This document shows, piece after piece, positions 16,800 through 46,103 of a stretch of DNA of 64,000 nucleotides (position 1 is the first letter of the stretch; every line of letters begins with the position of its first letter). A model generated the notes under the pieces. It ran no database searches. It worked only from the letters and a program-made list of their open reading frames with translations, and was not told where the DNA came from. This DNA comes from Vermamoeba vermiformis. Its lineage: Eukaryota. Position numbers and translations under genes: made by a program. The stretch is taken from assembly GCA_045837725.1 (NCBI GenBank), contig JBEWZL010000200.1, positions 62,001 to 126,000 of the forward strand, written 5' to 3'.

Positions 16800-17465
16800 T
16801 CAAACTCTGTAGATGGCATTTTTGTAGGCTTTACCACACATCTGCCAGAACAAGCTGCCGCAATACACGCATTCTGCTGAAGGTAGCGACAATTTTCCAT
16901 ACTTTCCGTACGAGTTTCCACACCAACATTGGTTCCAGTACTGCATGCCAGCAAATCTATAGCCAGCGCTATTGCAGAATGCCATACACGCGGTTGGATC
17001 GGACGTGTCAGGACCGCGGTAAGCCAGTTCACGGTCTTCAGTTTCATTGAAACAACCAAGGAACGCAGCTGGTGTTCGAGTGACGGAATTAATCGCTAAT
17101 CCGCCGCACTTTTCTGTCGCACTCTAAATATAACATCGTTAAATTTTAAATCTTAAACGAACTTTTAATTAACCTACGTTTGGATTGCCAGCGCATACTT
17201 TGTTGCACGACGACGAGTCCAAACTAGCAACCGTGCAATATTGATTACCGCACCAGCATTCATTGCCGTTTTGGGTGCCTGAATAAGCATAGCCTGCTTC
17301 ATAGCACCAACTTGAGCATGCAGAATTCGTGGTAGTGTTGCCCACGTAGAGTTTGAATGGCAGATCTGTTGCGCTGTGATCGAGACAACAGCCCACATAT
17401 TGAGCCATCGTAGCAATCGAGAAGCAACAGGCAATAAACGCGAGCAATACAACTTTTGGTGCCAT
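16800..17465 (-). CDS. Secreted double-WSC-domain protein (gene A)
   Basis: Signal peptide, two WSC domains (GC..D...C...C...GY.YAG.Q....CWCGN), one intron. Confidence 0.9.
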
Positions 17466-17542
17466 GCGTGGTCTTCAGTATTGACTTCGTAAGTGAATAG
17501 AATGCGCATACGAATCACTTTTTAATCCTGTTGTTCCATCGT

Positions 17543-17559
17543 GTCGCAGATATCGCCGC
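17543..17559 (-). promoter_or_regulatory. 17-bp WSC-gene upstream motif (GCGGCGATATCTGCGAC); one of 8 copies
   Basis: Related copies at 17709-17725(+), 24556-24572(-), 24685-24701(+), 26763-26779(-), 27092-27108(+), 29357-29373(-), 29631-29647(+), each oriented with the downstream WSC gene. Confidence 0.7.
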
Positions 17560-17791
17560 AATTGATAACGATTCTGAAACGAGCGGTACTATAATGCACA
17601 AGATAAAATCCGGATGGCAAAAATTGAAATGTTATTTAAGAAATGAATTGATTTATATGTCAACGGAATTGACATGTAAAATCTAGTAGGCAAAGTTTAA
17701 TAATAATAGCGGCTATAATTGCGATCAAAATTAAGTTAATAGACCACTCTTTTCATTTGCTTACTAAAATCGAAACAGAGGAGCATAAATA

Positions 17792-18885
17792 ATGACAAAA
17801 CTAATTTTTTTTGCGTTGATCGCTACTTGCTTATCAATGTCCGTAGTGGCCATAGTGATTGGTTCGGATCCGAATCCATCAACTCCGCCGCCGCCCTCGA
17901 CTTCTCCAACTGCAGAAGCTCCAATTGCAAATTCAGTGCCTATATCTTCAGCGCCAGTATCAGATCCGGTTTCGGTTCCAGTCGCCTCTCCGATCGACTC
18001 GCCAATTGCAACTACCCTGTCAGATCCGGTAGCAGCACCACCTGTCGATCCTATTGATGCACCAATCGCAACACCTGTTGATACTCCAATAGCTGCTCCA
18101 ATTAACTCTCCTGTCACTGCACCTATCGCGGTCCCAATCACAGTTCCTGTTGCCAATCCAATTGCTGTACCCGTGACAGTGCCGGTCTCAGCTCCAGTTC
18201 CAACACCTGTAGCCATCCCAGTTGCAGCGCCAGTTGCAGCACCAGTTGCAGCACCCAATCCAGTGGCTTCAGCGTTCATTGGCTGCTTCGAAGATTCTGC
18301 GTCAAGAGATTTGCCATACAAAGCTTATGCTGACTCTTCGAACACAAATGTCCGTTGCATTAACGCTTGCACGACTGCTGGCTACGCTTATGCAGGTTCA
18401 CAAAACGGAAATGAATGTTGGTGTGGAAATACGTATGGCAGCAAGGGCGTTTTTAATGAACAAATGTGCAATGTCGCCTGCACTGGCGATACTACTGTAA
18501 GTACTGTAACCGTTCGCAGATCCAAACTTAGATTATTAATACAATTTTCTAGCAATACTGCGGTGGACCCTACAGAAACTCAGTGTATAGAACGCCTTCA
18601 CGCTACATTGGCTGCTTCCAAGATTCGTCCAATCGTGACTTAAAATTCAACGGGTACTGGGGGAATGCCTACAGTCTGCCTTACAATTGTCAGGAGATCT
18701 GCAGAATGGCTGGCTATGCGTATGCTGGCTTGCAAACAGGCAGTGAATGCTGGTGCGGCAATAGTTATGGCTCACAAGGTCGTTTGAGCGAAGGTGCTTG
18801 CAATGTCTTGTGCACGGCGTCTAATCCACCTTATTCCACCGTCGTATGCGGCGAAAGCTGGATCAACTCAGTTTACAGAGTGTAA
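17792..18885 (+). CDS. Secreted Pro/Val/Ala-rich stalk + double-WSC protein (gene B)
   Basis: Signal peptide, xPV/xPI tetrapeptide repeats, two WSC domains, intron ~18497-18552. Confidence 0.9.
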
Positions 18886-19055
18886 AATCTTGCGTTGTAC
18901 CAGGTCCCGTTGAAAAATAAAGTTGTTCATGGCTCGGTAATTCGAAATGAAATTTTGATCTGAAAACAATTCAACAATTAAGGAGTGATACAGCATGAAG
19001 CAGAGATAATTTTAGGGCTCTTGTAAGTATATAGCAAGTATTATTGTAGATATTT

Positions 19056-19255
19056 GTGCAGCTACAGTGACGCAGCACTTAGCGTATGAATAGGCCAAGC
19101 GGATCGGTTTTTTGGCAGCCCTGGTGGAGAAGTCACGTGCGATTCACACCAAAATTGGAAGTTCGAGGAAATAGAAGTGTCGAACGCCAACGCCAAGACT
19201 ACCACAAGGCTCGTATATTTGACAGAGCCTAATATTCATTTGTTAATTTTTTCTT
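19056..19255 (+). repeat. Split direct repeat A1 (200 bp)
   Basis: Reads identical to 23406-23605 by eye. Confidence 0.95.
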
Positions 19256-19277
19256 AATTCGGAAATAAATTTCAACG

Positions 19278-20643
19278 ATGACTGCGAGACAATCGTTTAT
19301 CCAGAACCTAGTGGAGACACTCAAGACCCCACTACTCTCAAACTGGCCTGAAGCGCGACTCTGGAAGCAAGCTCTGGGATCCGTGAAATGGTCGATCATA
19401 GATCAGGCTGGGTCAGATGTGGACCAGCTTCGCTTCTTATGCTCCCTGGCGTTGGCGTACTGCTTAGGAGGGGAGTTTGATCAATTGGAGCGCAGCCCAG
19501 CAGTGTCGAAGGAGGAAATCTCTCGGATCTACTCCAAGGCGGCAGATTTAGTGGAGGATCCGGAGCTGTTGCCGTTGTTGGCCCCAGTGACTAAACGGGT
19601 GGAGAATTGGTCGTCCCAAGGACCTCCTCAGCCAGTGGATCGCCCATCGGAGTCTCCTGAGAAGATCAACTCGGATGGCGACCAAGATTCAGAAGACTCA
19701 GACAGTGCTGAAGCGGAGATTGCCCGAGCTGTCCGAGAGTACATGAAGAAGAAGCGCAATAAACGGCAGAAGATCGGAGAGTCTCAACCGAAGACCCCTG
19801 CTACAGCCCCAGCAGTGCAGATCACGGATGTCCCCCCTCCTAGCGCTTTGGCGAAAGACCCTAAGGTGGCGGCAGGTGCTGACGCACTCATCGCCCAATT
19901 GGAGCTCAAGTTGTCGTCGATGAAATCGCAGTTGGACTCGCTAGCTGGGAGCCTCGTTCCCCAGAGCCCCATCAACAACTTGCTTTTGCCTCAGCCCTGG
20001 GGCCAATCTTTGATCCACGGAACGTCGAAAGCCACCCCTGTTGGTCAACTGGCGGATGTCCAAGCGACAGTCGAGCTGAGGAAGCCAGGCCAGGTCTATC
20101 AAGGAGGCATTGGAGAAGAGGTTGCAACCCTCGCAGGCTAAGGTCCCACAGAACGCGGAGGATTATATCCGAGCGTCGTGGGAAGTCAAGGACCTCCTCG
20201 AGAAGGAGGAAGGTTTCGTCGAGCGAGATTACAATGCCTTTGTCCGCTGGATCGTGGAGCTTGGTGATGGCTACGAATGGCTCTCAGTTATGGCACTGGA
20301 CGAGCGCCTCAGATCGCTCCAAGCAGTGGGCAAGCTTCGCTGGAAAGACAGGCCCTTGGAGAGCCTCTTCACTACTCTTCGAGCTCGTCCAATTCATCAA
20401 CGTGCCGAGGCCAAGCAGGACAACAAGCCCAAGGCCTTTTCAGGCACCAAGAAGAAGAAGGGTGTCTGCTTTGCTTTCAACGGTCACAAGGGTTGTTCGA
20501 AGAGCGCTGATGCATGCGAGTACTCTCATTCGTGCTCTGACTGTAAGTCCTCCAATCACAATGTCCTTCATTGCTCCAGTGGCCCAAAAGGCCATCCCGG
20601 CAAGACGAGTTCATCGGGCGCGTCTGCGGAGCGCCGGGAGTAG
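19278..20643 (+). CDS. Gag-like protein of the YR retrotransposon, split over two frames (19278-20141 and ~20080-20643)
   Basis: Second part has YEWLSVMALDERLR and a C-terminal Cys/His finger CFAFNGHKGC..ACEYSHSCSDCKSSNHNVLHC, as expected for Ngaro/DIRS gag. Confidence 0.8.
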
Positions 20644-22205
20644 AGATCGTAGCCCGCTCTAGTGCAGTGACTCTCCGCTTCAATCAGTGGAAGAGATTCT
20701 TGGTGGGGGACTCTGACGCGGACTTCCTGACCGACATTTTCAAGCCTGGTGGTGGCCTTCGAGTTGTCAAGGAGGGTGTGGCTGTGCCAGCGTCTTTCTT
20801 GCCGAACTACGCTAGTGTCTTGGAGTGCGAAGACTTCATCCACCAAGACATTATGACGGAACTAGAGAAGGGTTTCATTGCAGTACTGCCAGTCCAACCA
20901 TACAAAGTCAATGCTCTTGGTGCAGTCAAGAAGAGCGAAGGCAAGTTCCGTCGCATTACTGATCTCAGTCGCCCAAAGGGCACGGCGTTGAATGAATACA
21001 TTGATTTGGTCAATTTTCAGTTTAGCACGGTCGATGATGCATGCGACTTCATAATGGAAAACCCTTGGGTTTTTGGCTGCAAGTTCGACATTGAAACAGC
21101 TTATCGTCATGTCCCAATCTGGCCGGGTGACTGGCATTACTTTGGCTTCGAGTGGCGTGGCACCTTCTACATCGATCTGCGCCTCTGCTTTGGTCTAGCT
21201 TCAGCTCCTTACGTTTTCTGGAGAATTTCTAATTTCATTGTCCGAGTAGGCAACAAGTTCTTTAACGTGGCCTTCATTTTGCCCTACATTGACGACTTCC
21301 TCGTGCTTTCTGTTGGCACTGACTCTGATGCTGCACGCACTCAAGCTTGGAAAGACTTCGTCAATTTCCGCGAGTGTCTAACCGAATTGGGTTGGCCAAT
21401 TTCGGAGAAGAAGATGGTTGAGCCCTGTCAAGATCTGGTCTTCCTTGGCATCGGCATCAATATGCATGATCGCATCATTTCTTTACCAGAAGACAAGCTA
21501 GCTGACCTTCTCGACATTCTACGGAGCTTCAAGGATCGAGTTTCGTGCACTAAGCGCGATCTGGAGCGCTTGATTGGTAAGCTCAACTTCGGCGCTAAAG
21601 TGATCAGGGGCGGACGCACTTTCCTCCGCCGCATGATCATCCTGGCCAACTCAGTCCCAGAGCGACATCACGTGGTGTCTCTAGACGATGAATTCCGTGC
21701 AGATTTGGATTGGTGGCTTCGATTTGCGAGCGCCTGGAATGGCAAAGCCGTTATGCTGGACCCAATGCCCATTGACATGCGTCGGTTTGAGGTGGACGCC
21801 TCAAATAGTGCTGCGTGTGCTATCTTCGACAAGCACTTCATCGTGCGGATCCACGACCCTTCGACATCTGCGTGGCACATCAATGATAAGGAGTGCCTTT
21901 CAGTCTACTTGGCTGCGCTTCGCTGGGCCCCAGAATGGGCCAACAAGCGGGTGATTGTCTCATCGGACAATACCACGACCGTTTCGGCCATCAACAAGGG
22001 GTCTTCAGCATCCCCAATCATCATGCGAATGCTACGGTCTCTGTTTTGGCTATCAGCGACACACAACTTTCACTTGACTGCGGTCCACATACCGGGGGTT
22101 CTTAACGACCTGGCAGATGCGGGTTCGCGATTGAACTTCGACAAACTGATTGACAAAGGGCTCTCCATGCAGTTGTGCCCCGAGTTTGATCCAGAATGTC
22201 TTTGA
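20571..22205 (+). CDS. Reverse transcriptase - RNase H
   Basis: KFRRITDLS, KFDIETAYRHVP, LCFGLASAP, YIDDF; RNase H VDAS..HINDKE..SDNTT..HIPGVLNDLADAGSR. Confidence 0.95.
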   Translation: MLQWPKRPSRQDEFIGRVCGAPGVEIVARSSAVTLRFNQWKRFLVGDSDADFLTDIFKPGGGLRVVKEGVAVPASFLPNYASVLECEDFIHQDIMTELEKGFIAVLPVQPYKVNALGAVKKSEGKFRRITDLSRPKGTALNEYIDLVNFQFSTVDDACDFIMENPWVFGCKFDIETAYRHVPIWPGDWHYFGFEWRGTFYIDLRLCFGLASAPYVFWRISNFIVRVGNKFFNVAFILPYIDDFLVLSVGTDSDAARTQAWKDFVNFRECLTELGWPISEKKMVEPCQDLVFLGIGINMHDRIISLPEDKLADLLDILRSFKDRVSCTKRDLERLIGKLNFGAKVIRGGRTFLRRMIILANSVPERHHVVSLDDEFRADLDWWLRFASAWNGKAVMLDPMPIDMRRFEVDASNSAACAIFDKHFIVRIHDPSTSAWHINDKECLSVYLAALRWAPEWANKRVIVSSDNTTTVSAINKGSSASPIIMRMLRSLFWLSATHNFHLTAVHIPGVLNDLADAGSRLNFDKLIDKGLSMQLCPEFDPECL

Positions 22206-23272
22206 CAGCGGAAGATTACATTGGCCTCGGCTATGTGGACTCCACGGTCAAGGCCAGGCAGGCAGTGGTTTTGGCCTTTGCCAGGTTCTGCTACGCTTCA
22301 AATCGAACATTCTTCCCGACAAACGAGTTTGTCCTGGCCGACTACGCGGCATATCTTGCAAATAATGGTGTCAAGGCAAGTTCGATCAAGACATACTTGA
22401 CAGCCATTTTCGCCTTTCAACAGTTGCATGGTGGCCCACACCCAGCACGTGACAGCCTTCGCCTCAAGGTGGTCCTCAAGGGCATTAAACGCGCACAGTC
22501 CTACACACCGTCGAGCAAGCACCCCCTCACTCCTGTGGAGTTGCTCAAAATCAAGGCATGCTTAGACTGGTCATCGTCTCTCCATCGCACCTTCTGGGCT
22601 TGCCTCGTGGTTGGTTTCTGGTCATTTCTTCGGGGTGGAAACCTAGTGCAGAAATCCGCGAAGAAATTCGACCCAGCGAAGCATCTCAGCGCGTTGAACT
22701 TGTCGAGGAACGAGCGTGGATTTTTGATTTCGCTCAATCGAACGAAGACAGTCCAATTCAACGAGAGAAGGCTGATCATCCCGCTACTCTCAGTACCGGG
22801 AAATGCACTGTGTCCCGAAGTGGCCCTGGAGGCGATGTGGGCCTTGTGTCCCATGCCTGAATCAGGGTCGCTTTTTTGTTTTAAGGGTGATGACGGTAGA
22901 GTTATGCCGCTGGTGCACTCAAAGCTTAACGATAGTAAGTATTGTGGCAGTAGTTGCATATTGTGCTTACTTACCTGTTTTTCTCCAGTGATCAAGAAGA
23001 CCTGCCTTCAGTGCGGGTTGGATCCGAAGGATTTCTCCGCACATTCGCTGCGTAAAGGTGGCACGACGGGAGCCTTCATCGCGGGAGCGGACAGGGTGAT
23101 GGTCAAAGCTCAAGGAGACTGGGTGTCAGACGCCTACATGCGTTATGTCACTTTTTCTCTGGATCAGCGCTTGTCAGTCCCACAGGCGATCATCGAGGCG
23201 ATGAGAACTCCTCAATTTTTTGAGCGCTGCTCTTCCTTGTCACTAGCGACAGCGGCGGCGATCTATCAATGA
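22196..23272 (+). CDS. Tyrosine recombinase with a predicted 54-nt intron (22935-22988)
   Basis: Catalytic R (FLRGGN), K (RTKT), HSLRKGG, GDW.SDAYMRY; ATG overlaps the end of the RT-RH ORF. Confidence 0.93.
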   Translation: MSLTAEDYIGLGYVDSTVKARQAVVLAFARFCYASNRTFFPTNEFVLADYAAYLANNGVKASSIKTYLTAIFAFQQLHGGPHPARDSLRLKVVLKGIKRAQSYTPSSKHPLTPVELLKIKACLDWSSSLHRTFWACLVVGFWSFLRGGNLVQKSAKKFDPAKHLSALNLSRNERGFLISLNRTKTVQFNERRLIIPLLSVPGNALCPEVALEAMWALCPMPESGSLFCFKGDDGRVMPLVHSKLNDSKYCGSSCILCLLTCFSPVIKKTCLQCGLDPKDFSAHSLRKGGTTGAFIAGADRVMVKAQGDWVSDAYMRYVTFSLDQRLSVPQAIIEAMRTPQFFERCSSLSLATAAAIYQ

Positions 23273-23300
23273 TCTGGTTTGGGGGCTCGTTCGCTGTGTT

Positions 23301-23740
23301 TGGGGGCTTTGGTGCTCTCGTTAGCCCCAACCCGTGGCGGGGGGTGACGGGGAGCCACCACCCCTAATAAAGCTGAATTTACCCCCACGAGCAGCGCAGG
23401 CATTCGTGCAGCTACAGTGACGCAGCACTTAGCGTATGAATAGGCCAAGCGGATCGGTTTTTTGGCAGCCCTGGTGGAGAAGTCACGTGCGATTCACACC
23501 AAAATTGGAAGTTCGAGGAAATAGAAGTGTCGAACGCCAACGCCAAGACTACCACAAGGCTCGTATATTTGACAGAGCCTAATATTCATTTGTTAATTTT
23601 TTCTTTTTAATTTTTATTTTTATCACGTTGTACAATGGGGGCTTTGGTGCTCTCGTTAGCCCCAACCCGTGGCGGGGGGTGACGGGGAGCCACCACCCCT
23701 AATAAAGCTGAATTTACCCCCACGAGCAGCGCAGGCATTC
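23301..23740 (+). repeat. Right-end repeat block B1-A2-spacer-B2
   Basis: B1 23301-23405 and B2 23636-23740 (105 bp) read identical; A2 23406-23605; each B contains AATAAA. Confidence 0.95.
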
Positions 23741-23832
23741 AGAGCGGCAAAGACGCGTTCTCTATTTTTAAAAATTATTTATTTATCGAGCGAAACTATT
23801 ATTGATCAATAACACTAATAATCCTACGTACA

Positions 23833-24482
23833 TTACAATCTAAAAACTGAATTTCTCCAAGGACCTCCGCACCATTGCGAATTGTCGCCAGCGCAAGGTT
23901 TGCAATCTGAGGCAGGAGCAGCACCGTAACGTCCGTAGATACCACCACAATAGCATTCGTTACCATTTTGCATGGCAGCGTAGGCGTAGCCCTTAGAACG
24001 GCACACATTCATGCAATAACTGGGATAGTCCACTTTGTACGTAAAACCAGACAGATCTCGAGTTTCTGTATCAACAAAGCATCCAATATAGCGCGCATTG
24101 GTGGCAGAGATCGAATTAATTTGAAATCCGCCACATTTTTCCTTAATATACAATCGTAAGATTTTTTAAACTTAATTTTACAAATTTAAATTAAACTTAC
24201 GTTCGGATTGCCAGAGCAAGGAAGAGAGCAAGAAGCCTTATCTAATTCACCAAAATTGCAAAATGTATTGCCGCACCAGCATTCGTTGCCGTTCTTAGTT
24301 CCAGCCCAGTCATATCCAATTTCCTTGCAATAGCTTCGGCAATCGGCGTTGGTCAAAGTGTTGCCCGTGAAAGCTTTTACTGGGAATGCGGTACCGTGCG
24401 GATCAAGGCAGCAGTCTTGTTGAGCCAGTACAGCCACTGATAGGCAAGTAGCGATCAATGCGAGTACGATAACTTTATTCAT
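23833..24482 (-). CDS. Secreted double-WSC protein (gene C)
   Basis: Signal peptide, two WSC domains, one intron. Confidence 0.9.
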
Positions 24483-24770
24483 TTGTGCTTGTCTTTTTAA
24501 ATGTTAATGAATCGAATGATAATTCAATAGTTATTTAACCGCGCGTGTTTGCGACGTCGCAAATATCGCCGCGTTGAATCATTGCGTGTCAAAAAATGTC
24601 ACAGATCTGAATCGACCATCATTATAAAATTAATGAAATATATAGGACGTACACAAATCTAATTTGGCAAATTTTAAACAAACTGCGGATATATATGCGA
24701 CAAAGAGTGATTTTCAACATGCGATTATAAATCATTAGACCAACACCTCGTCAATTGAACAACACAATCG

Positions 24771-25496
24771 ATGATCTTTAAATTTTTCGTCGTCGCGTTC
24801 CTAGTCTTCAATTTATCAACCGCCGCTCCACCACCAGCAAGTGAATACATTGGCTGTTGCAAAGACGGTGCTGGTGGAGTAAGAGAGTTGCCGGTGAAAA
24901 TGAACCTCACAGTGACAAGCAACCAGCAGTGTCAGACCCTGTGCGGCAACTATGGCTACGCTTTTGCAGGCACGCAGAATGGCAATCAATGCTGGTGCGG
25001 ATACAACAAATGCTCTCAAGGAATTTTTCTCGACACGTTCTGTGCCAAGCCATGTTCTGACACGACGGTAAGTCAATCTAATTATACATACTATCATTCT
25101 CATTTTATTTATTATTGCAGCAAGTGTGCGGCGGTATTTCAAACCGAAACTCAGTGTACAAGGTACCCACTCGTTACGTAGGATGCGTTCAAGACGCAGC
25201 AAACGCTCGCATTTTGCCGTACTCTGCGTACAAAGGCAGCATCAAGAATAAGCCCGATGATTGCATCGCCTATTGCAGAAGAGTCGGACATTACTTCGCT
25301 GGAGTTCAAAACAACGATTGTTGGTGCGGCAGTCAATTAGGTTCATTGCGCTTTGTTGCTGAAAGTCAATGCAGCAGTCCTTGTTCTGGAAACAGCACGG
25401 TAAGTTGGATGCACAAAATTATTAGTGTTTGGACTAATATTAATTCCTAAGATGACCTGCGGTGGCAACCTAAGAAATTCTATGTGGCGTGTATGA
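24771..25496 (+). CDS. Secreted double-WSC protein (gene D)
   Basis: Signal peptide, two WSC domains, two introns each just before the terminal xCGG of a domain. Confidence 0.88.
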
Positions 25497-25755
25497 AATT
25501 TGATGCTCAACAAAATAAACATTAGTTAATTATGCAATATTACTATGAAAAAGAAATTTGAAAATACGAGATCTTGCTTTTACGAACGTGCGTAAACACG
25601 ATTCAGCTTTATATTAATTAAACTCGGTAGATAGCATTACGAAGGTTGCCAGGATACTGGACCGCATCTGCAGCCTAAGATTGAGCCATCAGCAAGTTGT
25701 CAAAAGGTAATAGATCCGATTTATTCCGAATTCAGGAGGAGTTAACAAGGTTATA

Positions 25756-26695
25756 TTAGGCCCTATATACTGAATTTCTGTATGCTTCGCCGCATTTGTC
25801 TCCGTTGAGGCAGCTCGAGCAAGCGTTGTCCGGTGCTCGGCCGTATCTTCCGTATGAATTTCCGCACCAGCATTGGCTCATAAATTGTACGGCAGCATAC
25901 GAGTAGCCTGCACCAGCACATGCTGAGACGCACGTTGCAGCTTGATTTTGACGCACTTCCTGAATATAGAAAGGCAGATCTCGATCGGGGTCGTCAACAA
26001 AGCAACCGATGTATGTATTAGCAGCGGATCTGAAGACCGAATTAATTCCGATAGCACCACATTGGTCCTAAAATACTATATTAATATCGATTGACTTCTT
26101 AAAGTCCATATTTTACTTACACTAGGATTGCTAGCACAAGGTTTGTTGCAAGAAGACGAAGCCAAACGACCAACAGTGCAATATTGATTACCGCACCAAC
26201 ACTCATTGCCATTTTGAGTACCAGCGTAGAGGTATCCTGCTTGCGCGCGGCAATTCTGTTTGTCGCCACCACCGATCACATTTACGTGAGTACCCACGAC
26301 GAATTTTAAACACATCTGACCGATCTAATTCATGAAAATTTCAACAGGCGTATCAGTGGGAGATTGGTCGTTTGATCAGTTCATTTGCGCACGACAATAC
26401 AGAAGTGAATGCGATTCATTTTGTGCTGGATCAAGTGCTCGTCATTAGTTCGCCTCGTAGAGCTGACTACATGAAAATTAGGACTAAGCTCGAGTTTTGA
26501 GCTCTCTTGAACGCCTGCGATGTACAAGAAGTAAATGCACCAAGTCTGGCAATTGGCATTCGTAGTAGCATTGCCGATGTACGCTTTGTACGGCAGATCT
26601 ATTGCGCTGTGATCGAGACAACAGCCCAGAAATTGAGCCATCGATGATGTTGAGAGGAATATAGCGATAAGTGCAAAGAAAATGAGTTTGGCCAT
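25756..26695 (-). pseudogene. Double-WSC gene E (paralogue of A) disrupted by a 290-bp insertion
   Basis: NCQTWC|AQAGYLYAG is split by 26247-26536; the rest of the gene is intact. Confidence 0.85.
26247..26536 (+). other. Inserted fragment of another gene: end of an exon, a 62-nt intron, last exon, stop and 3' flank
   Basis: AAILFVATTDHIY | GTGAGT..CTAAT..CAACAG (26286-26347) | AYQWEIGRLISSFAHDNTEVNAIHFVLDQVLVISS...LEF* (stop 26498-26500). Confidence 0.75.
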
Positions 26696-27168
26696 TGTTG
26701 CGCTCGTGTTGCAGTAAGTTTAAATAATAGTTTATGCACGACAAAAGTGCTATTTTAATAGTGTCGCCGATATCGCCGCAATTTACAATAGTTGCTAGCT
26801 TGTCTGAAAGATGTCAACCAGCGAATTACATAAAATCGAAATAAGCTTATTTCTGACCGTTTTTATAAACCTAGGAATACGCAATCCGTCGAGCTATTAG
26901 CAGTCGTCGAATCAAATTGGCAACATTCGATATTGATCAGTCCTATAGTTCACAAGATTTTTAAGGACAACGTAGTGAACACGGCAAAATTTAAAATGCA
27001 GTTTAAGAAATGAAGGAATTTATAACGTAAGTTGACATTTGAATTGACAAGTAATTTCACTCTCTAATATTCCGGGCAATGATTGGCATTAGCGGCGATA
27101 ATTGCGACCAAACATTTTAATTGTTCCCGTCATTCACTAACTCTTATTGAAACATAATAGCACACATC

Positions 27169-28237
27169 ATGACGAAGCTAATTTTGGTGGCGTTGATCGT
27201 TGTTTGTTTATCAATGTCTGCTATGGCAATTGTTATTGGAGGAGATCCAGGCCCATCCACTCCACCTCCTCCTACCTCATCGACACCAATAGCAGCTCCA
27301 ATTACCACCTCCGTACCCACTTCTTCAACGTCAGTATCAGATCCGGTCGCTGCTCCTTTGGACCTTCAGATCGACGTTCCTGTTGCAACACCTGTCACTG
27401 CACCTGTTGACGCGCCTGTTTCTACTCCAATTGACGTACCAGTGACCACTCCTATTGATACTCCCATTGACGTGCCAATCTCTGCTCCAGTTGATGCTCC
27501 CGTTGACACGCCAGTTACCGTTCCCGTTGCTGTCCCTCTGACAGTACCATTAGCCACTCCCGTTGCAGTGCCTGTTGCAGCTCCTGTTCGAGCACCCGTT
27601 GCAGCGCCAGTAGCAGCACCCAATCCAGTCCGTTCAGCGTACATTGGCTGCTTCCAAGACTCAGCCTCGCGGGACTTGCCGTTCAAAGCCTACGCTAACA
27701 GTTCAAACTCGAACGTATTGTGCCTTAACGTGTGCAGATTTGCTGGGTATGCCTATTCTGGCACTCAGAACACGAATGAATGTTGGTGCGGCAATACTTA
27801 CGGCGGTCAAGGCAAATTCGACGATAAATTGTGCACCATGTCTTGCTCTGGCAATTCAAATGTAAGTACAGTTAGACCTCGTATTATTCCGATATAATTA
27901 ATAATGATTTTTCTAGCAAACTTGTGGAGGACCTTACAGAAACTCAGTGTATAGAACACCAGCTCGCTACATTGGTTGTTTTGCGGATTCGTCCAATCGC
28001 GACATGAAATTCAACGGGTACTGGGGCAACACTAAAAGCACTCCTGAGCTGTGTCAGAGTGTTTGTTCTAAGGCTGGATACGTCTTCGCTGGCTTGCAAA
28101 CAGGCACTGAATGCTGGTGCGGAAATAGTTACGGATCTCAAGGCCGGCTTAGCGAAAACTCATGCAATAAGGCCTGCACTGGAAAATCTACGGCTAAATG
28201 CGGCGGTGATTGGGCTAATGCTGTTTATAGACTATAA
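27169..28237 (+). CDS. Secreted Pro-rich stalk + double-WSC protein (gene F, paralogue of B)
   Basis: Same architecture and intron position as gene B; shares IVIG.DP.PSTPPPP. Confidence 0.9.
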
Positions 28238-28604
28238 TGAGCTGCGTGTAACGAGAAAATAAACTTGTTTTCATTTTTGAACCAAGTAGAACAGTAAACC
28301 ATAAGACAAAGAGTCAAAGACTTGCTCGCGGGTAAATACAGGTATATATATATTCAGAAATTATAAATTACTCTTTCGAACGTAAGGAGACAATTTGTAC
28401 AAATGCCAGCAGATCCAGCCCAAAGATTATTTATTAGACTCACAAATACCCTGAAAATTATTATTATAATATGCAATATCCTGTTCTTGGCGTTTAGTAT
28501 TATTTACTAATTTTTGACGATTTATTAGCATTTTATCAAAGCCAGATTTATTAGTTTACGACAATTATATCTGTCATTTAAATCTCCTTGTAATCTTTTC
28601 CACC

Positions 28605-29260
28605 TCACGCTTTGTAAACTGAATTTCTCCACCCAGCTCCGCACGTTTGCAAATTATACGCAGAACAAGCCAAGCAGTCTGAGGCAGGAGCAGCTCCGTA
28701 CCGGCCGTATGTATTACCGCACCAGCACTCGTTACTGTTTTGCACGCCAGCGTATTTATAGCCAGCAGTGCGGCACGTGGTAATGCAATCGCCGGGATAG
28801 TCCAGATTCGGTCCTCGGTAAGTCAGATCGCGAGTGTCAGCATCAATGTAGCAACCAATATAACGGGCGTTGGTCATATAGACCGAGTTAATAGCAAATC
28901 CACCGCATTTTTCCTGAATTATAAAGATATAAGATTTTTATTTAAATAATTTTTTAATTTCAGCAGATCTTGACTTACGTTTGCATTACCAGCGCAAGGT
29001 GAATAGCAAGATGAGGCATCTAATTTACCGAGACTGCAAAAGGCATTTCCGCACCAGCATTCGTTGCCGTTTTGAGTACCAGCGTAGTCATAATTAAGTT
29101 CGCTACAATAGCCTCTGCAATCTGCATTGGTCACTGTGTTGCCCCAATACGCTTTGAACGGCATATCTACGCCATTAGGATCGATGCAGCAGGCAGTCTG
29201 AGCGAGCACTGTCGTTGACAGGCAAGTAGCGATCAATGCAAGTACGATAATGTTATGCAT
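28605..29260 (-). CDS. Secreted double-WSC protein (gene G, paralogue of C)
   Basis: Signal peptide, two WSC domains; shares GNT.TNADCR and TNARYIGC with C. Confidence 0.9.
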
Positions 29261-29669
29261 CAGTAATAATAATATGAAGGTGTTATAAGTGTTATTAAAT
29301 ATTATGTCTATAAGTGAATGAACGGAATTGGCGCAATTTTAACCACGCGTTTTTTTGTCGCAGATATCTGCGCCAAGTGTCAAAAGTTCATTGCCATGCA
29401 CACAAACGAATTAATTAAGCCACAATAGACGCACAAATCTTCGCGCAAATTGCCGACGATGTAATTGACATGTAATTGACATGTAATTTGACAGGTAAAT
29501 TTAGATTACCCGCAATGTTTTAATATTTGTGAAATATATGAAAATTTAATTGGACATTAAAGAACGAGAGACATATATAGAACAACGACAGCTTGACTGA
29601 CAAATTTTTCACGATTCTCATTTGACATTCGCGGCGATGTATGCGACGTTCTGAAAAACACTAGTTTGG

Positions 29670-38524: not shown

Positions 38525-38774
38525 CTGTCAATTCGCAACGGTAACTTGAAGTAATTATTACTTTAAGGCTGGTCTGCGCACGTAACTTTGTAGTACTGAA
38601 CTAACATCCGTGTATTCATCAACACAACTTTGAACGAAAAGGCAAAACCGAAAAATTCTGGATGCCAAAAAGCGAAAAATCGAAAGCGGAGCGTTCGGTA
38701 CAAAAAAGAAAGAAAGGATTCTTCTTACTTCAAATCACATCGCCACGAACAACAAAACACAGTGCAATCTTCAA

Positions 38775-39955
38775 ATGAAAGCAGTCTTGGTATTGCTTTT
38801 CGCTACCAGCGCGATGGCCGACAACACCCGAAGTTACGAACCACCAGTGACCTCTATCATATTTAGTAAGCTCCGTAACACGATAGCCTTCTTGTATGAC
38901 ATATTAATAAGTATTTCAGCGATCATTTTTGGCACCGTTTCGGTTCTTAACGTGATCTGGCTTGTAAAGCTCAGGCGACGAAAAATTGACACTGCTCCTC
39001 TAAATGTTGAGAAGTAAGTAATTAACTATCAAAAAAATTTAAATGACGAAAAGAAAGTAATTTGAGCGGATCTTATTCGCGCATACGACTAAAAATGAGG
39101 ATTAATCTAGATTTTTAGGCAAACGTTAGTAAATTCAACACTTCCCGAGGGAGTAGTTGCGAGCAACATCAATGTTTCCGATAAGAGTCGTCCTAGCTTG
39201 TTACGCGAAGTTCGTCAGGATGAGCAGCTCGCTTGGGCTCACGAAAGGCCTGCTCCAAGTAAGTACTATACAATTACTAAACATATATAATATTCATTAT
39301 GCTGATGTAACTAATTTCTTCAGTGATGCAAAACCTTACCGTCTTTTTGATCTTGGCTACTTTCTTGTCCGTCGGTACATTCGCTGTTGCCTTGTCATTT
39401 TCTTTTGTGCAAGGTTATATCGACATTGTTTTCTTAACTTTGTACTGTCCTATAGCTTTCATTGTGTAAGTTGAAATGTTTCCAAATCTGGATTTCGCGA
39501 ATCCAGTACTTACTTTTTTTTTAGTGGCATTTTCGATCTCACAACCTTTCTTGTCTCCAAACAAGTGAGCTCCTCTGTGATCTACGCAGTCACTAGCAAA
39601 CGAGTTTTCATTTTTTCATCGGTGAGATCTGGTGGTTGCTGCGGCGGAAAAAATCGAAACAGTGCGTGCTTATGACCTCGATGGCATTCATCAAACTACA
39701 ATCACTCGAAAGGATGACGGTAGTGGTACTTTGACTTTCAGCGCTAGTGCTGTTGATGAGGGTACGTTGTCAAATGATCTGCTTGCGATCCAAAAAATTT
39801 CCGCTAACTTACAATGAATGATAGATTTCAACCACCATGACCACCACAATTACGGCTTGTCCTTCGCCTTCACTGACATCCCCAATGTTACCGCGGTCAA
39901 GGATCTGATCGAGCAGTACAAAAGTCTCAGAAAGAAACAAGCTGTTAACCATTAA
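38775..39955 (+). CDS. Membrane protein with a bacterial-PH-like C-terminal domain, copy 1 (extra A at 39648-39653 shifts the frame)
   Basis: Signal peptide, TM segments, IYAVTSKRVFIF..DGSGTLTF..IPNV; paralogue of copies 2 and 3. Confidence 0.65.
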
Positions 39956-40155
39956 CAAACTTAAGTAGTAGTCAGTTGTACGGTATAATATATGCTGTTA
40001 ATTATTCGTGTTCAATTCTCGTGTAATTTCTGGATGCCAAAAACGCGAAAAATCGAAAGCGGAGCTTTCGGTACAAAAAGTAAAGAAAGGATTCTTCTTA
40101 CTTCAAAAACATCATATCATTGCCACGAACAACAATGGTCGCACTTAATTTTCAA

Positions 40156-41356
40156 ATGAAAGCAGTCTTGGTATTGCTTTTCGCTACCAGCGCGATGGCC
40201 AACCATACCCGTGGTTATGATCCTCCAGTGACCTCTATCATATTTAGTAAGCTCCTTAACACGATAGCCTTCTTGTATTACATACTAATACGTATTTCAG
40301 CGATCATTTTTGGAACAGTTTCGGTGCTTCATGTGATCTGGCTTGTAAAGCTCAGGCGACGAAAAATTGATACTACTCCTTTAAATATTGAGAAGTAAGT
40401 AAATTAAAATACTGTCAAAAAATTTTAAATGACGAAAAGAAAGAAATTTGAGCGGATCTTATTCGCGCATACGACTAAAAATGAGGATTAATCTAGATTT
40501 TTAGGCAAACGTTGGTAAATTCAACACTTCCCGAGGGAGTAGTTGCGAGCAACATCAATGTTTCCGATAAGAGTCGTCCCAGCTTGTTACGCGAAGTTCG
40601 TCAGGATGAGCAGCTCGCTTGGGCTCACGAGAGACCTGCTCCAAGTAAGTACTATATAATACTAAACGTAGATAATATTCGTTATGCTGATGTAACTAAT
40701 TTCTTTAGCGATGCCAAGCGTTATCGTCTTTTTGATCCTTGCTACTATCTTGTCCGTCAGTACATTCGCTGTTGCCTTGTCATTTTCTTTTGTTATGCAA
40801 GGTTATATCGACATTGTTTTCTTAGCTTTGTACTGTCCCACAGCTTTCCTTGTGTAAGTTGAAATTCATTTCCAAATCTGGATTTCGCGAATCCATTACT
40901 TTTTTTTTTAGTGGCATGTTCGATCTCACCGCCTTTATTGTCTCCAAACAAATGGGCTACTCTGTGATCTACGCAGTCACTAGCAAACGAGTTTTCATTT
41001 TTTCATCGATGAGAGCTGGTGGTTGCTGCGGCGGAAAGATCGAAACAGTGCGTGCTTATGACCTCGATGGCATTCATCAAACTACACTCACTCGAAAGGA
41101 TGACGGTAGTGGTACTTTGACTTTCAGTGCTGCTGCTATTGCTGACGGAGGTTCGTACCAAATCCGGATCACGAGTGATTAGAAAATATCTTTAAATCGC
41201 TTAACCATGAACTTATTTTTGTTATTAATAGCATATCATGGCCAACAACATCACTATGGCATGTTTGCCTTCACTAACATCCCCAATGTTACCGCGGTCA
41301 AGGATCTGATCGAGCAGTACAAAACTCTCAGAAAGAAACAAGCTGGTAACCAGTAA
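40156..41356 (+). CDS. Membrane protein with a bacterial-PH-like domain, copy 2
   Basis: Tandem duplicate of copy 1, including upstream DNA from ~40028 (matches ~38656). Confidence 0.7.
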
Positions 41357-41544
41357 ATTTCTACAATACGCAATAAACTACTGGAGTCCTTCCTTTATTT
41401 CGTTCGAGTTTAAGCTGTTTGAATTTTGGCCAAAATTGGCAAATCCTGTTTTTTTTCGTTCGCGCAAACTCATTCTTAAAATCACGTTTCTTTCTAATAT
41501 TCATCATCAAAGCAAATTTAAATTAAGACAAAATAATCAAAAAT

Positions 41545-42883
41545 ATGTCGTGGTACAATGCAGTAAGTACGAAACACGATCACCATTTTTTAATTATTTG
41601 TTTAGTCACTTAATTTGTTTAGTACGGCATATTTCAAAATATATATAACATTTTAGAATATTCTACGTTTAATTGTAATATTTTTCGCCACAGGTTCTGG
41701 CACCTACCAAATTAACTCGGATTTCGGAAGGACCCAAGCTTGTCATAATTGGAGAAGATGTACTATCCATACTAGATGATATTAAGCAATGGAACATTAA
41801 TTATCAAATCAACGAGATTTGTTTTGAGCTGAATTCGATGACAACCCGCGAGCACATCCAACTCCTTTTTGACGCAATTGAAGAGTACAATAGCAATAGC
41901 AATCGTTGCAATATCGAAATTATGACGCTAAAAGTTGCAAGGGACGAACAGATGTATCGACCACACAAGCTATTCGGCTCACTCACAAAACTGAACGGTC
42001 TTCACTGCCCAACAAAGTATTTCAAATTGGATATTCCTTGCATTGGAACTTGGACTAATTTATTCACTGAAATCGCTGCAACACTTGCAAGTGGAACGAA
42101 TTTCAACCAATTCTCATTCGCGGATGTCAAAATTTTCCTTACTGTGATATTCCAGTTGAAGGATTCAAAGAATTCTGTGAATATTTTATCCATAATAAGG
42201 ACCGATCGCTATCATTGGAAATGAAAGGATTATCTTTCTCTGAACCAACAGTACCGCATCTACATCGGCTGATCCGAGAATCAAAAGGACTGACGAATCT
42301 AATGCTTACAATGCATTTTACCGATGTGACTGAAGTAACCATATTCGAAGTATTGGCTAATAGCAGCGTCAAGACATTGTACTTGGAACTACAAGACGCA
42401 AGAGTCAAATCGAATCGAAATCTGTACACTGCGATCGGAAAAATGATTGGCAACTCTCCAATGTTAGAAGATTTAACGATACAGTTTTATAGCTATAATT
42501 TGAAAGACGATGACATAAGAAATGGATTAAAAGCGACGCAGTCTTTGCGGAAACTTAAGCTTTGGCTGCTAGCCCCACTAGACAATCTGTCCATATTGCC
42601 AGAAAACGAATCAGTAGTAGAATACTGCGCTGTTCGATATGCAGATATACCGCTTCGTAACAGAAAATTGCAGAACGATCGGGTCCGATCGATGATAGTG
42701 CTGTTGTACAATATTGCACGATCAAGTCATTGCAAAAATTCATCAGACGAATCAATGCCAGTACTACCACGTGACGTTTGGGCGTTGATCGTGTCACATG
42801 TCAAATATCCAGGAGTGACACTTGACTTTGGTCCAATTGCACGATCAATCTTCAAAGACCAATCAATTAGACGTGTAATATAA
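41545..42883 (+). pseudogene. RNI-like LRR protein with C-terminal F-box-like motif, frameshifted near 42140
   Basis: Paralogue of 43165-44538; 8 nt instead of 6 between the F and D codons at ~42138-42145. Confidence 0.65.
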
Positions 42884-43164
42884 AATGAGGAGATATAAAC
42901 ATGTTTATAGGTGTTCAGCGAACTGACAAAACCTCATTTGGTGGATCGAGATGAAACGTGAAAAATCGTCGCCACGCAACATCGTTTTATTTGGCATTGA
43001 GTGGTTCAGAGAGAGAAATATTTTTAGGAACTAATCTCGGTTTAATTCACTTTAGCTTCCGTATCTTGACCGGTCACTTTTCAACGGATTTTCTTTTTTG
43101 TTGCTTTTGTCATTGGCTCAGCACCACAAGATTGCCTCAAAATTATTTTTATATCAATATAGTC

Positions 43165-44538
43165 ATGTCGCAGAGCAATGAGGTAATCATTTAAATTAGA
43201 TCGGTCAAAGATTTCGAATTATCTTTTAATTTTCTTGTTTATCAACTGTTATGATTTTATTATCGACCCAAAATTTATCTATGGAAGTATTATTATGTAT
43301 ATTAATTATTATGCACTCAGATAACAATATCAAAGAAAGACACCAGAATTTTGAATTACTCGAGCGTTAAAAAAGTCAGCATTGCTCTAAGCCAGTTTGC
43401 AGAGGACATTAAATATATTTTTGATGATATTAAGCAACCGAATATGAATTATCAAATCAACGAGATCCATTTTGATTTGGATGCGAAAACAACCCGCGAG
43501 CACATCCAACTCCTGTTTGATGCAATTAAGGAGTACAATAACAATAATAATCGCTGCAATATAGATCTTGTGACTTTGGAAGTCAACGAAGATGACAGTT
43601 CACGTGCACCGCTCAATACAAAACTGAACGGTCTTCACTGCCCAACGAAGTATTTCAAATTGGATGTTCCTAGCATTGAAAATTGGACTAATTTATTCAC
43701 TGAAATCACAGCAATACTTTCAAGTGGAACGAATTTCAATCAGTTCTCATTCGCACAGCTAACTCTGTTTGGCGACGATGTTCCAGCGGAAGGATTCAAA
43801 GAATTCTGCGAATACTTTATTGAGCATAATGACAAATTAGTATCACTGGAATTGGCGCATGTAACGGTCACCACACCGGCAATACCACATCTAGCTCAGC
43901 TGATCCAACGATCAAAAGCATTAACGAAGCTGAAATTTGGGTTAGATTGTGAAAAGGACTCTAGATATGACATATTTGATGCTTTGGCAGACAGTAGCGT
44001 GAGGATTTTACAGATGGTGCTTTACGACTACCTCATGCCGGATCTGTACTCTTCGGTCGGAAAAATACTAGCCAATTCTCCGAAATTAGAAGATTTATGT
44101 TTAACTGTGTTTAATGATGCCATAGTGGATAATATCGACTTTAAAAATGGATTAAAAATGGCACAGTCTTTGCGAAAGTTGGAACTCATTTTGAAGTCTC
44201 CGCTCAATGACCTGTCAATGCTACGAGAGAACGAATCAATAGTAGACTGTGAATTATATCGTAACACTGATAAAGGGCAGATCAAAGAGATAACACTTCG
44301 TAACAGAAAACTTCAAAACGAACGAGTTCGATCGATGATAGTGCTGTTGTACAATATTGCACGATCCAGTAATTGCTATAATTCATCAAATGAATCAATG
44401 CCAGTACTACCACGTGACGTTTGGGCGTTGATCGTGTCACATGTCAAATATCCAGGAGTGACACTTGACTTTGGTCAAATTGCACGATCAATCTTCAAAG
44501 ACCAATCGATTAGACGTGTCATACATCGTGTAAAATGA
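43165..44538 (+). CDS. RNI-like LRR protein with C-terminal F-box-like motif
   Basis: Tiny exon 1 (MSQSNE), intron, long exon with LxxLxL repeats ending PVLPRDVWALIVSHV. Confidence 0.7.
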
Positions 44539-44842
44539 CTCTAATAAATGAAGCATTGATGACGAGGAATATTTGCTTACAAGCCGCTCCATCTCGGATG
44601 CGGTTGATCCTGAAGTTGCAAGATCGCTCGAGCGTCTCCAAAACTAAACTTGTTTTGATCATCAGAAAGGGACTTGCCAAAAGTCTCGTCAATGAATTAA
44701 TACAGATTTTTCGGTGGACCGTTCCAGAACGAAATTCGCAAATACGAAAATGTGCGATCGGAAAAAAAAATGAGATAAAAATCTTTGGCCCTCGAGTAAT
44801 TTTAGTTATCAAAACTTATCGATCGAGTTACAACGGTTGAGA

Positions 44843-46103
44843 ATGAAAGTTCTTATGGTTCTATTGTCTGCTACCGCCGTATTGGCAAGCCACACCCACA
44901 CATCTCCGTCCTACTCCACCAACCCTCCGCCTTTTCCGGCTACTTCCTTGGCATTCAGTAAGTCAATAGTATTTTTAGTATGTGCACAATATTAATTTAC
45001 GATAATAGCTATTATCTTCTCGGTAGTAACGCTTTTGAATGTTTTTTGGATCATTAAAGTCGCTAGAGCGAAGTCAAACCCGACCTCTGCAGACTTAGAA
45101 AAGTGAGTAAATATTATTGATCAATAATCAAATTATTTATATTCGTAATTGCGAAATTTAATAATTAATAAAACTATCTTGCGAAATCTGCTTTTGTTTA
45201 CGCTCGTTTTACGCATTTACCTAAGCAATATTAATCACTAATATTTTGAGCAGTCAATCATTGGTAAACTCAACATTGCCCGAAGGTGTGGTGTCAACAA
45301 ACATCACTGTCTCCGCAAAAAGCCGTCCTAGCTTGCTCGGAGAACTTCGTCATGACGAGCATCTTGTTTGGGCCCACGAAACCGGCTCTCCTTGTAAGAT
45401 ACAAGACCTTTTGTTGTTGTAGTTACAGCTCGATCTGACCAGATTTGATTTTTAGTGCGTAACGGCATCATTATTTTATTGGGCATCTCTTTGTTCTTCG
45501 CTGTTGGTGGTTTGGCCACTTCTATTGCATTCTTATGTGTATTGGACGGCGATATTGACGTTGTTTTCCTTTCGATGTGGATGCCGATCATTTTTACCAA
45601 GTAAGATTCGAAAATTGCTGGATCTTCGTTTCCAATCTAATTTTATTCTCTTTCGTAGCTTAATGTTCTACATGATTGCTGGATTAATGCAAAAGATGTC
45701 TGCTAACTCGATTATCTTTGCTTTGACTAGCAAACGAGTTTTCATTTTTTCGTCGATGAGATCTGGTGGTTGCTGCGGCGGAAAGATCGAAACAGTGCGT
45801 GCTTATGACCTCGATGGCATTCATCAAACCACACTCACTCGAAAGGATGACGGTAGTGGTACTTTGACTTTCAGTGCTGCTGCTATTGCTGACGGAGGTT
45901 CGTACCAAATCCGGATCACGCGTGATCCAAAAACATCTTAAAATCGCTTAAACATGAACTTATTTTTGTTATTAATAGCATATCATGGCCACCACCACCA
46001 CTTTGGCATGTTCGCCTTCACTAACATCCCCAATGTTACCGCGGTCAAGGATCTGATCGAGCAGTACAAAACTCTCCGAAAGAAACAAGCTGGTAACCAG
46101 TAA
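44843..46103 (+). CDS. Membrane protein with a bacterial-PH-like domain, copy 3
   Basis: Same exon layout; divergent 5' half, 3' end nearly identical to copy 2. Confidence 0.7.

Follow-up and report, generated by a model that had tools for sequence, protein, structure and literature searches.

The window analysed here is a stretch of 64,000 nucleotides (nt) from Vermamoeba vermiformis (GenBank assembly GCA_045837725.1, contig JBEWZL010000200.1, positions 62,001 to 126,000 of the forward strand), and all positions given below are counted from its first letter. A mobile element of 4689 nt was found at positions 19052–23740 on the plus strand. Between its gag gene and the open reading frame (ORF) for reverse transcriptase (RT) together with RNase H, hereafter RT-RH, lies a candidate site of −1 programmed ribosomal frameshifting (PRF), which is the subject of this report.

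Structure and classification of the element

The stop-to-stop list contained four ORFs between the repeats of the element: two parts of gag, the RT-RH ORF, and a tyrosine recombinase (YR) ORF (Table 1). The repeats occur in the order A1–[ORFs]–B1–A2–B2, a split arrangement that fits the Ngaro type. The RT-RH ORF matched the Pfam family RVT_1 above its cut-off (5.5e-08), and the weaker matches to RT_RNaseH (0.0021) and RVT_3 were both below their cut-offs; there was no Pfam match to a methyltransferase domain in this ORF. Pfam searches with the gag and YR ORFs returned nothing significant. When the YR ORF was aligned with those of five related loci, residues R146, K184, H283, R286, W309, and Y317 were invariant in all six sequences, and the profile of this alignment matched Cre recombinase among solved structures (E = 3e-14). 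The catalytic set R-K-H-R-(H/W)-Y is present, and the YR gene lies downstream of RT-RH. The element is an Ngaro-type YR retrotransposon (DIRS order), an assignment that is structural and not phylogenetic.

The G+C content of the element was 52%, against 41% for the window. Its RT-RH ORF is free of stops and was 97–99% identical to four sibling proteins. Judging from its 100% identical repeats and from close siblings with intact predictions of a 460-amino-acid gag and a 500-amino-acid RT, the copy in the window looks young.

Table 1. Positions of the element's repeats, ORFs, and junction features within the window. P0054 is the intact gag prediction of a sibling element.
Feature	Position	Strand	Description
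Split direct repeat A1, left element end	19052–19255	+	204 nt, 100% identical to 23402–23605
gag, 5' part	ORF 19269–20141, ATG 19278, premature stop TAA 20139–20141	+	Frame 0; 273 of 274 residues identical to P0054 residues 1–274
gag, 3' part	20080–20643, stop TAG 20641–20643	+	Frame 1; CCCH-like finger and CCHC zinc knuckle; 179 of 180 residues identical to P0054 residues 281–460
Site of 17-nt deletion	20097–20103	+	Six residues in siblings P0054, P0200, and P0201; one base in the window
RT-RNase H ORF	20547–22205, first ATG 20853	+	Frame 0, −1 relative to the 3' part of gag; Pfam RVT_1
Slippery heptamer C CCA AAA (CCCAAAA)	20583–20589	+	gag frame, inside the overlap, just after the CCHC knuckle
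Spacer GGCCA	20590–20594	+	5 nt, between heptamer and hairpin
Stem-loop	20595–20639	+	7-bp outer stem, 5-bp and 4-bp inner stems, minor 2-bp helix
Tyrosine recombinase (YR) ORF	ORF 22190–23272, ATG 22196	+	Frame 2, −1 relative to RT-RH
Split direct repeat B1	23301–23405	+	100% identical to 23636–23740
Split direct repeat A2	23402–23605	+	100% identical to A1
Split direct repeat B2, right element end	23636–23740	+	100% identical to B1

The gag/RT-RH junction

An initial annotation, made from the letters of the window, had described a retroviral −1 frameshift signal joining gag to RT-RH, and its description of the junction was reproduced in every detail of position. Codons of the gag frame start at positions equal to 1 modulo 3 and those of RT-RH at positions equal to 0 modulo 3, which places RT-RH in the −1 frame. 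The two ORFs overlap by 97 nt (20547–20643), and the RT frame has no ATG from 20547 until 20853 (residue 103). The heptamer lies within this overlap in the gag frame, which reads ..AGT GGC CCA AAA GGC.. (S G P K G), and the 5-nt spacer separates it from the stem-loop. A −1 reading across the site gives ..SSGPK-RPSRQDEF.. into RT-RH, in agreement with the trans-frame peptide (..PKRPSRQDEF..) that had been derived in the annotation. The outer stem pairs TCCCGGC (20595–20601) with GCCGGGA (20633–20639), and the inner stem pairs AGACG (20603–20607) with CGTCT (20621–20625), both at the positions originally assigned to them.

Seven strict X XXY YYZ heptamers occur in the 4689-nt element, and CCCAAAA is the only one within the gag coding sequence. 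At least one in-frame heptamer was found in the overlap in 2.5% of 20000 mononucleotide shuffles, and the heptamer density of the element itself (7 per 4689 positions, with 31 in-frame positions) gives a chance of about 0.05. A passage in a bioRxiv preprint includes CCCAAAA among 20 heptamers from the Recode database that are known or suspected in vivo.

The hairpin ranked among the best 1.2% of the 4639 overlapping 50-nt windows of the element, and among the best 3% after adjustment for G+C content. Within gag and RT-RH no other 50-nt fold is as stable, and stronger distinct folds occur only in the B repeats and the YR ORF. Within the overlap, the sole difference of siblings P0200 and P0201 from the window is an Ala-to-Val change in gag, which implies a C-to-T change at 20627; read in the RT frame, this would be a synonymous change (TGC to TGT), and in the minor helix it would replace a C-G pair by U-G, so that the two positions still pair (a single case, deduced from proteins). 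A pseudoknot between the hairpin interior and the following 60 nt was also considered and rejected, with −22.2 for the window against a shuffle mean of −21.0 and 34% of shuffles as good. Elsewhere in the element, the strongest 50-nt fold (−30.0 kcal/mol) is located in the B1 and B2 repeats (23311–23360 and 23646–23695), and another strong fold (−26.0) lies within the YR ORF (22822–22871). These folds might serve replication or recombination.

The N-terminal region of RT-RH provides further information on how this ORF may be expressed. A search with the RT-RH ORF found 53 homologues, 22 of which were aligned with the window sequence. In this alignment of 23 sequences, conservation starts near window codon 36 (VARSSAVTLRF..W..FL.GD), and G70, N87, and S90 are nearly invariant, all of them upstream of the first ATG at codon 103. 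The first RT-frame ATG sits 67 codons into conserved sequence, so that a start at this ATG would delete conserved residues. The conserved-looking N-terminus that the initial annotation had placed upstream of the first ATG is therefore borne out by comparison.

The gag gene of the window copy is broken

The initial annotation overlooked that the gag ORF it used (20080–20643) is the 3' half of a broken gene: this ORF has no early start codon of its own, and the 5' half lies in another frame. Relatives of gag were collected by searching 1.84 billion representative proteins, which returned 146 gag-like representatives at E ≤ 0.001. One intact sibling gag, P0054, is 460 amino acids long and spans both halves of the window gene. 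In the siblings P0054, P0200, and P0201, six residues lie between a Tyr (TAT, 20097–20099) and a Lys (AAG, 20101–20103) that are separated by one base in the window, indicating that the window copy carries a 17-nt deletion near 20100, which shifted the frame. The residues deleted are part of a motif, ..YLPR.F.., that is common to other gag relatives. A 43-nt GT..AG interval (20094–20136) was examined as an intron that might join the gag halves and was dropped, because the siblings show the window to be merely short of 17 nt.

By this reconstruction, ribosomes starting at the gag AUG of the window copy are expected to stop at 20139–20141 and cannot reach the frameshift signal in frame. Since gag is frameshifted upstream of it, the signal describes the element family and not the expression of this copy.

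Three sibling contigs (carrying P0054/P0203, P0200/P0202, and P0201/P0204) are 4122–4622 nt long, near the unit size of the element, and each holds one gag and one RT prediction. The gag prediction P0200 has only 305 amino acids and begins at an internal Met. The size of these contigs suggests that they are transcripts, or that a multi-copy element assembled alone.

Junctions in related elements

One scan of bacterial and archaeal genome contigs yielded eight related loci (L001–L008), whose RT sequences were 32–42% identical to that of the window and which hold complete or partial gag, RT-RH, and YR genes. They are filed under Sedimenticola, Ca. Thiodiazotropha, Bacteroidetes, and unclassified bacterial metagenome-assembled genomes. 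From their gene content, these contigs are most probably misbinned DNA of eukaryotic hosts.

In five of the eight loci (L002–L006), RT lies in the −1 frame relative to gag, and the heptamer A AAA AAC is found in the gag frame inside the overlap. These loci resemble the window in gene order, in the −1 position of RT, and in the presence of a gag-frame heptamer in the overlap, and their shift sites are located 16–33 codons upstream of the conserved N-terminal Trp of RT. They differ from it in the heptamer itself and in RT sequence (only 32–35% identity), and no significant hairpin was found in L002–L005. The five loci fall into two clades. In L004, L005, and L006, the gag stop directly follows the heptamer, and the 10-nt overlap of L004 consists essentially of the heptamer alone; in L002 and L003, the gag stop occurs 30–36 nt downstream of the heptamer. 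The heptamer is within the longest invariant block of the junction alignment in both clades, namely AAAAAAACTAG in L004/L005/L006 and TCAAAAAACT in L002/L003.

Two further loci have a different arrangement. In L001 (3540–3700) and L007 (2090–2260), gag and RT-RH are in one frame with a single stop between them (TGA; TGA CTC in L007). L007 is visibly decayed, with further stops and a frameshift. The in-frame stop of these loci could reflect stop-codon readthrough or plain decay.

The C-termini of gag proteins are consistent with the junctions of L004–L006. Among the 146 gag-like representatives, KN was the commonest terminal dipeptide, and seven sequences ended in K-N-stop, compared with 0.59 expected; such an end matches AAA AAC followed by a stop codon, as in these three loci. 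The nearest gag protein outside the family is P0210 (53–56% identical overall); a single contig of 8089 nt encodes both it and P0002, an RT that was 76% identical to that of the window. P0210 keeps SGPKGHPGKTSSSG, which starts at the heptamer, covers the hairpin's 5' arm and inner stem, and with its 14 residues shares first place in length among the identical runs. Over the final 23 residues of P0210, 20 are identical to those of the window gag, which places this tail in the top 2.1% of 23-residue windows. The tails of the other gag relatives past the knuckle are unrelated.

The RT-RH/YR junction

At this junction (22187–22205), the YR ORF is also in the −1 frame relative to the ORF preceding it, with an overlap of 16 nt, and its ATG (22196) lies 7 nt before the RT stop codon TGA (22203–22205). 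No strict heptamer was found in any of the five RT/YR −1 overlaps (window, L001, L002, L003, and L008); only in L001 does this overlap contain a loose one, C CCT TTG, read in the RT frame. As an internal control, a strict in-frame heptamer was present in all six gag/RT −1 overlaps, the window included, versus none of the five RT/YR overlaps. Because YR has its own ATG and no heptamer in the overlap, it is probably expressed by a route other than slippage.

These observations bear on a published proposal. According to the review by Poulter and Butler (2015), as quoted in PMC13003380, the Ngaro YR ORF lies in the −1 frame of the RT/RH ORF that it overlaps, and programmed frameshifting is its probable means of expression. 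In the quoted form, the proposal concerns the same class of elements, a short overlap, and a downstream ORF in the −1 frame, as here; the difference is that it refers to the YR ORF, whereas the canonical signals in our data are at the gag/RT junction. PRF at the RT/YR junction lacks support from canonical signals in the elements examined. In passages from other sources, YR ORFs are said to be possibly 'frameshifted' relative to RT-RH (PMC3783388), and two Xenopus Ngaro-like families are described in which all ORFs overlap (PMC9210276). A full-text literature search, with the original description of Ngaro outside its coverage, found no tested frameshift in any YR retrotransposon, and the sole statement on PRF that it found for Ngaro elements was the suggestion of the review regarding the YR ORF. 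As far as experiments are concerned, the initial annotation was fair in calling pol expression in Ngaro/DIRS elements poorly established, but PRF had already been proposed in print, for the YR ORF, in the passage cited.

Interpretation of the gag/RT-RH junction

We consider it probable, though well short of settled, that in the element family the gag/RT-RH junction carries a −1 PRF signal of the retroviral kind. The position of RT in the −1 frame with no early ATG, the conserved N-terminus of RT, the sole in-frame heptamer of gag, the hairpin, the heptamers of the relatives, and the kept gag tail all count for PRF; from these sequence features we infer the slippage itself, its efficiency, and a role of the hairpin as stimulator. 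In intact members of the family, ribosomes translating the 460-codon gag would reach C CCA AAA just past the CCHC zinc knuckle and would be slowed by the stem-loop located 5 nt downstream, at the mRNA entrance. A fraction of them would then slip back by one base, with tRNA-Pro moving from CCA to CCC in the P site and tRNA-Lys from AAA to AAA in the A site, and would read on through the junction peptide into RT-RNase H. The outcome would be a Gag-RT/RH fusion of approximately 960 residues, made at a fixed ratio to Gag.

Several observations weigh against this interpretation. The hairpin is marginal when compared with shuffled sequences: the 45-nt form had a minimum free energy of −20.9 kcal/mol (z = −1.48, with 13 of 200 dinucleotide shuffles as good) and the 50-nt form one of −21.7 kcal/mol (z = −1.88, with 4.3% of 300 shuffles as good), which can be attributed to the G+C content of about 70% in this region. 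In contexts of 80–120 nt, the z scores ranged from +0.7 to −0.6 and were not significant, with competing folds, and in the 118-nt fold starting at the heptamer, the heptamer itself was base-paired. No significant hairpin followed the heptamer in L002–L005 (z = −1.4 to +0.9), so a stimulator common to the whole family is not apparent. Three of the eight loci deviate from the arrangement of the window, with RT in the gag frame behind a stop in L001 and L007 and in the +1 frame with an early ATG in L008. The heptamer of the distant relatives, A AAA AAC, differs from C CCA AAA, and conservation of CCCAAAA in the close relatives is deduced from the G-P-K peptide, as these are available as proteins only. 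As a proxy for CCA AAA, the dipeptide P-K was present in 7 of the 16 best matches, yet this did not hold more widely: P-K occurred within 12 residues past the knuckle in 11 of 106 tails, compared with 6.9 in shuffled tails (p = 0.068, not significant). With RT residues 1–200 as the query, a search of predicted proteins 967–2760 residues long gave no Gag-RT fusion; this is weak evidence, and gene callers would not predict such a fusion anyway. For the window copy in particular, the signal is intact but probably idle, given that its gag cannot lead ribosomes to the site in cis, and Gag-Pol from this copy could arise only if intact siblings supplied it in trans.

The checks that had been envisaged in the initial annotation gave mixed results. 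In the folding analysis, the hairpin formed 5 nt past the heptamer and ranked in the top 1.2%, but its z score was only −1.5 to −1.9. In the comparison with related elements, heptamers were found at the same junction in five of eight loci and the peptide was kept in P0210, but the distant heptamer is a different one and is not followed by a significant hairpin in L002–L005. The central claim of retroviral −1 PRF joining gag to RT-RH is supported for the family by this comparison, but it does not extend to the gag-defective window copy, and the hairpin on which it partly relied is marginal.

The alternative that survives best is that RT-RH is translated separately, by termination and reinitiation after the gag stop TAG (20641–20643) or from a near-cognate start such as GTG 20667, with the heptamer and hairpin being incidental. 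The RT homology begins only at about codons 36–41, right after the gag stop, and several RT predictions of close relatives start with M at the columns of codons 36–44, which also speaks against PRF; P0005, P0007, P0009, and P0013 start with 'MT', aligned to GTG-ACT of the window. However, the gene caller writes non-ATG starts as M, as in P0001, where 'MGDSDA' corresponds to V(GTG)GDSDA of the window, so that the M of the relatives is no proof of an AUG; their M positions also differ between clades, and the window has no RT-frame ATG between 20547 and 20853. In some of the distant loci, an ATG is in fact available, which again counts against PRF: in L003, the sequence at the gag stop is TAATG, and the RT-frame ATG of L004 and L006 comes 12 nt after that stop. 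With RT-frame ATGs 0–15 nt from the gag stop in these three loci, reinitiation is a live alternative in the relatives, as may be expression from the early ATG of the RT ORF in L008. On the other hand, L002 and L005 keep the heptamer with no nearby ATG, and in the junction alignments, the heptamer is invariant where the ATG varies. The YR ORF, with its own ATG in a short overlap and no heptamer, indicates that a downstream ORF can be expressed without PRF within the same element, but reinitiation does not explain why P0210 so strongly conserves the part of the gag tail that lies upstream of the stop. Taken together, we regard separate translation of RT-RH as unlikely, though serious enough to be kept in mind.

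According to a second alternative, the copy is dead and its heptamer and hairpin are accidental products of a GC-rich overlap, which neither form a recoding signal now nor formed one in the recent past. This would agree with the marginal z scores of the hairpin, with the broken gag of the window, and with the probability of the heptamer, which rises to 0.14 when the density in the AT-richer window as a whole is used. The joint placement of the features is, however, difficult to ascribe to chance, since the sole gag heptamer is in frame, inside a 97-nt overlap, and 5 nt before the top fold of gag and RT-RH. Moreover, the copy is young, with 100% identical repeats and with RT and gag 99% identical to those of intact siblings, and canonical heptamers occur at the same junction in relatives. 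We judge an accidental origin to be quite improbable.

Joining of gag and RT-RH at the RNA level, whether through splicing or because the polymerase slips on the A-run, is hardly credible: a consensus-like GTAAGT (20543–20548) and an AG (20578–20579) are present, but the interval (20543–20579) is 37 nt long and its removal gives the wrong frame, the A-run of the window measures only 4 nt although those at the relatives' junctions are longer (A7 in L004–L006, A6 in L002 and L003), and the three sibling contigs of 4122–4622 nt keep gag (460 or 305 amino acids) and the 500-amino-acid RT unfused.

Genomic surroundings

The genes around the element are eukaryotic and encode WSC, LRR, kinase, and RasGAP domains. 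It is inserted in a cluster of short, secreted-looking WSC-domain genes (16800–18900 and 23800–29350; Pfam WSC 2e-17, 1e-09, and 4e-16). Its flanks contain diverged duplicates that are 64–77% identical, located approximately 9.2–9.4 kb apart across the element and approximately 4.8 kb apart within the right flank. Farther downstream, at 38766–46103, there are tandem or dispersed repeats of 90–95% identity with start-to-start distances of approximately 1386, 1640, and 4747 nt. The ORFs in these repeats had no Pfam match, and the region looks like a recently duplicated gene family.

Comparison with known systems and implications

Well-known examples of −1 PRF include U UUU UUA with a stem-loop in HIV-1, A AAA AAC in several retroviruses, and G GGA AAC in mammalian PEG10. 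The junction in the window resembles the gag-pol (gag-pro) frameshift sites of retroviruses and long terminal repeat retrotransposons in having a gag-frame heptamer of the X XXY YYZ type after a nucleocapsid knuckle, a 5-nt spacer, and a stem-loop. It is also similar in that the pol ORF, shifted to −1, lacks its own start codon, and in that a Gag-RT fusion is predicted. Unlike in retroviral gag-pol, protease and DDE integrase are both absent from the element; pol consists of RT-RNase H only, and integration is assigned to a separately encoded tyrosine recombinase. C CCA AAA is a less common type of heptamer, and the putative stimulator looks like a branched hairpin of simple form, for which the analysis gave no support for a pseudoknot.

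A more general proposal, on which we are evenly divided, is that a Gag-RT/RH fusion made by −1 PRF is the ancestral and widespread mode of polymerase expression in Ngaro-type elements. In this proposal, at least two interchangeable heptamers would be in use, namely A AAA AAC, in many cases directly next to the gag stop, and hairpin-associated C CCA AAA, and YR would be expressed by a mechanism other than slippage. The mechanism itself is a textbook one and the gain is incremental: it is an ordinary mechanism in a little-studied class of elements. The window supplies a concrete candidate for gag/RT-RH recoding that comprises heptamer, spacer, and hairpin and for which the junction peptide can be predicted, and canonical heptamers recur in the relatives where gag meets RT but not where RT meets YR. 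In annotating such elements, it would be better to model gag and RT-RH as a pair joined by a frameshift and to flag the window copy as gag-defective. If the proposal is true, YR retrotransposons would possess a retrovirus-like device for dosing Gag and Pol, and the published suggestion of PRF at the YR junction would have to be revised.

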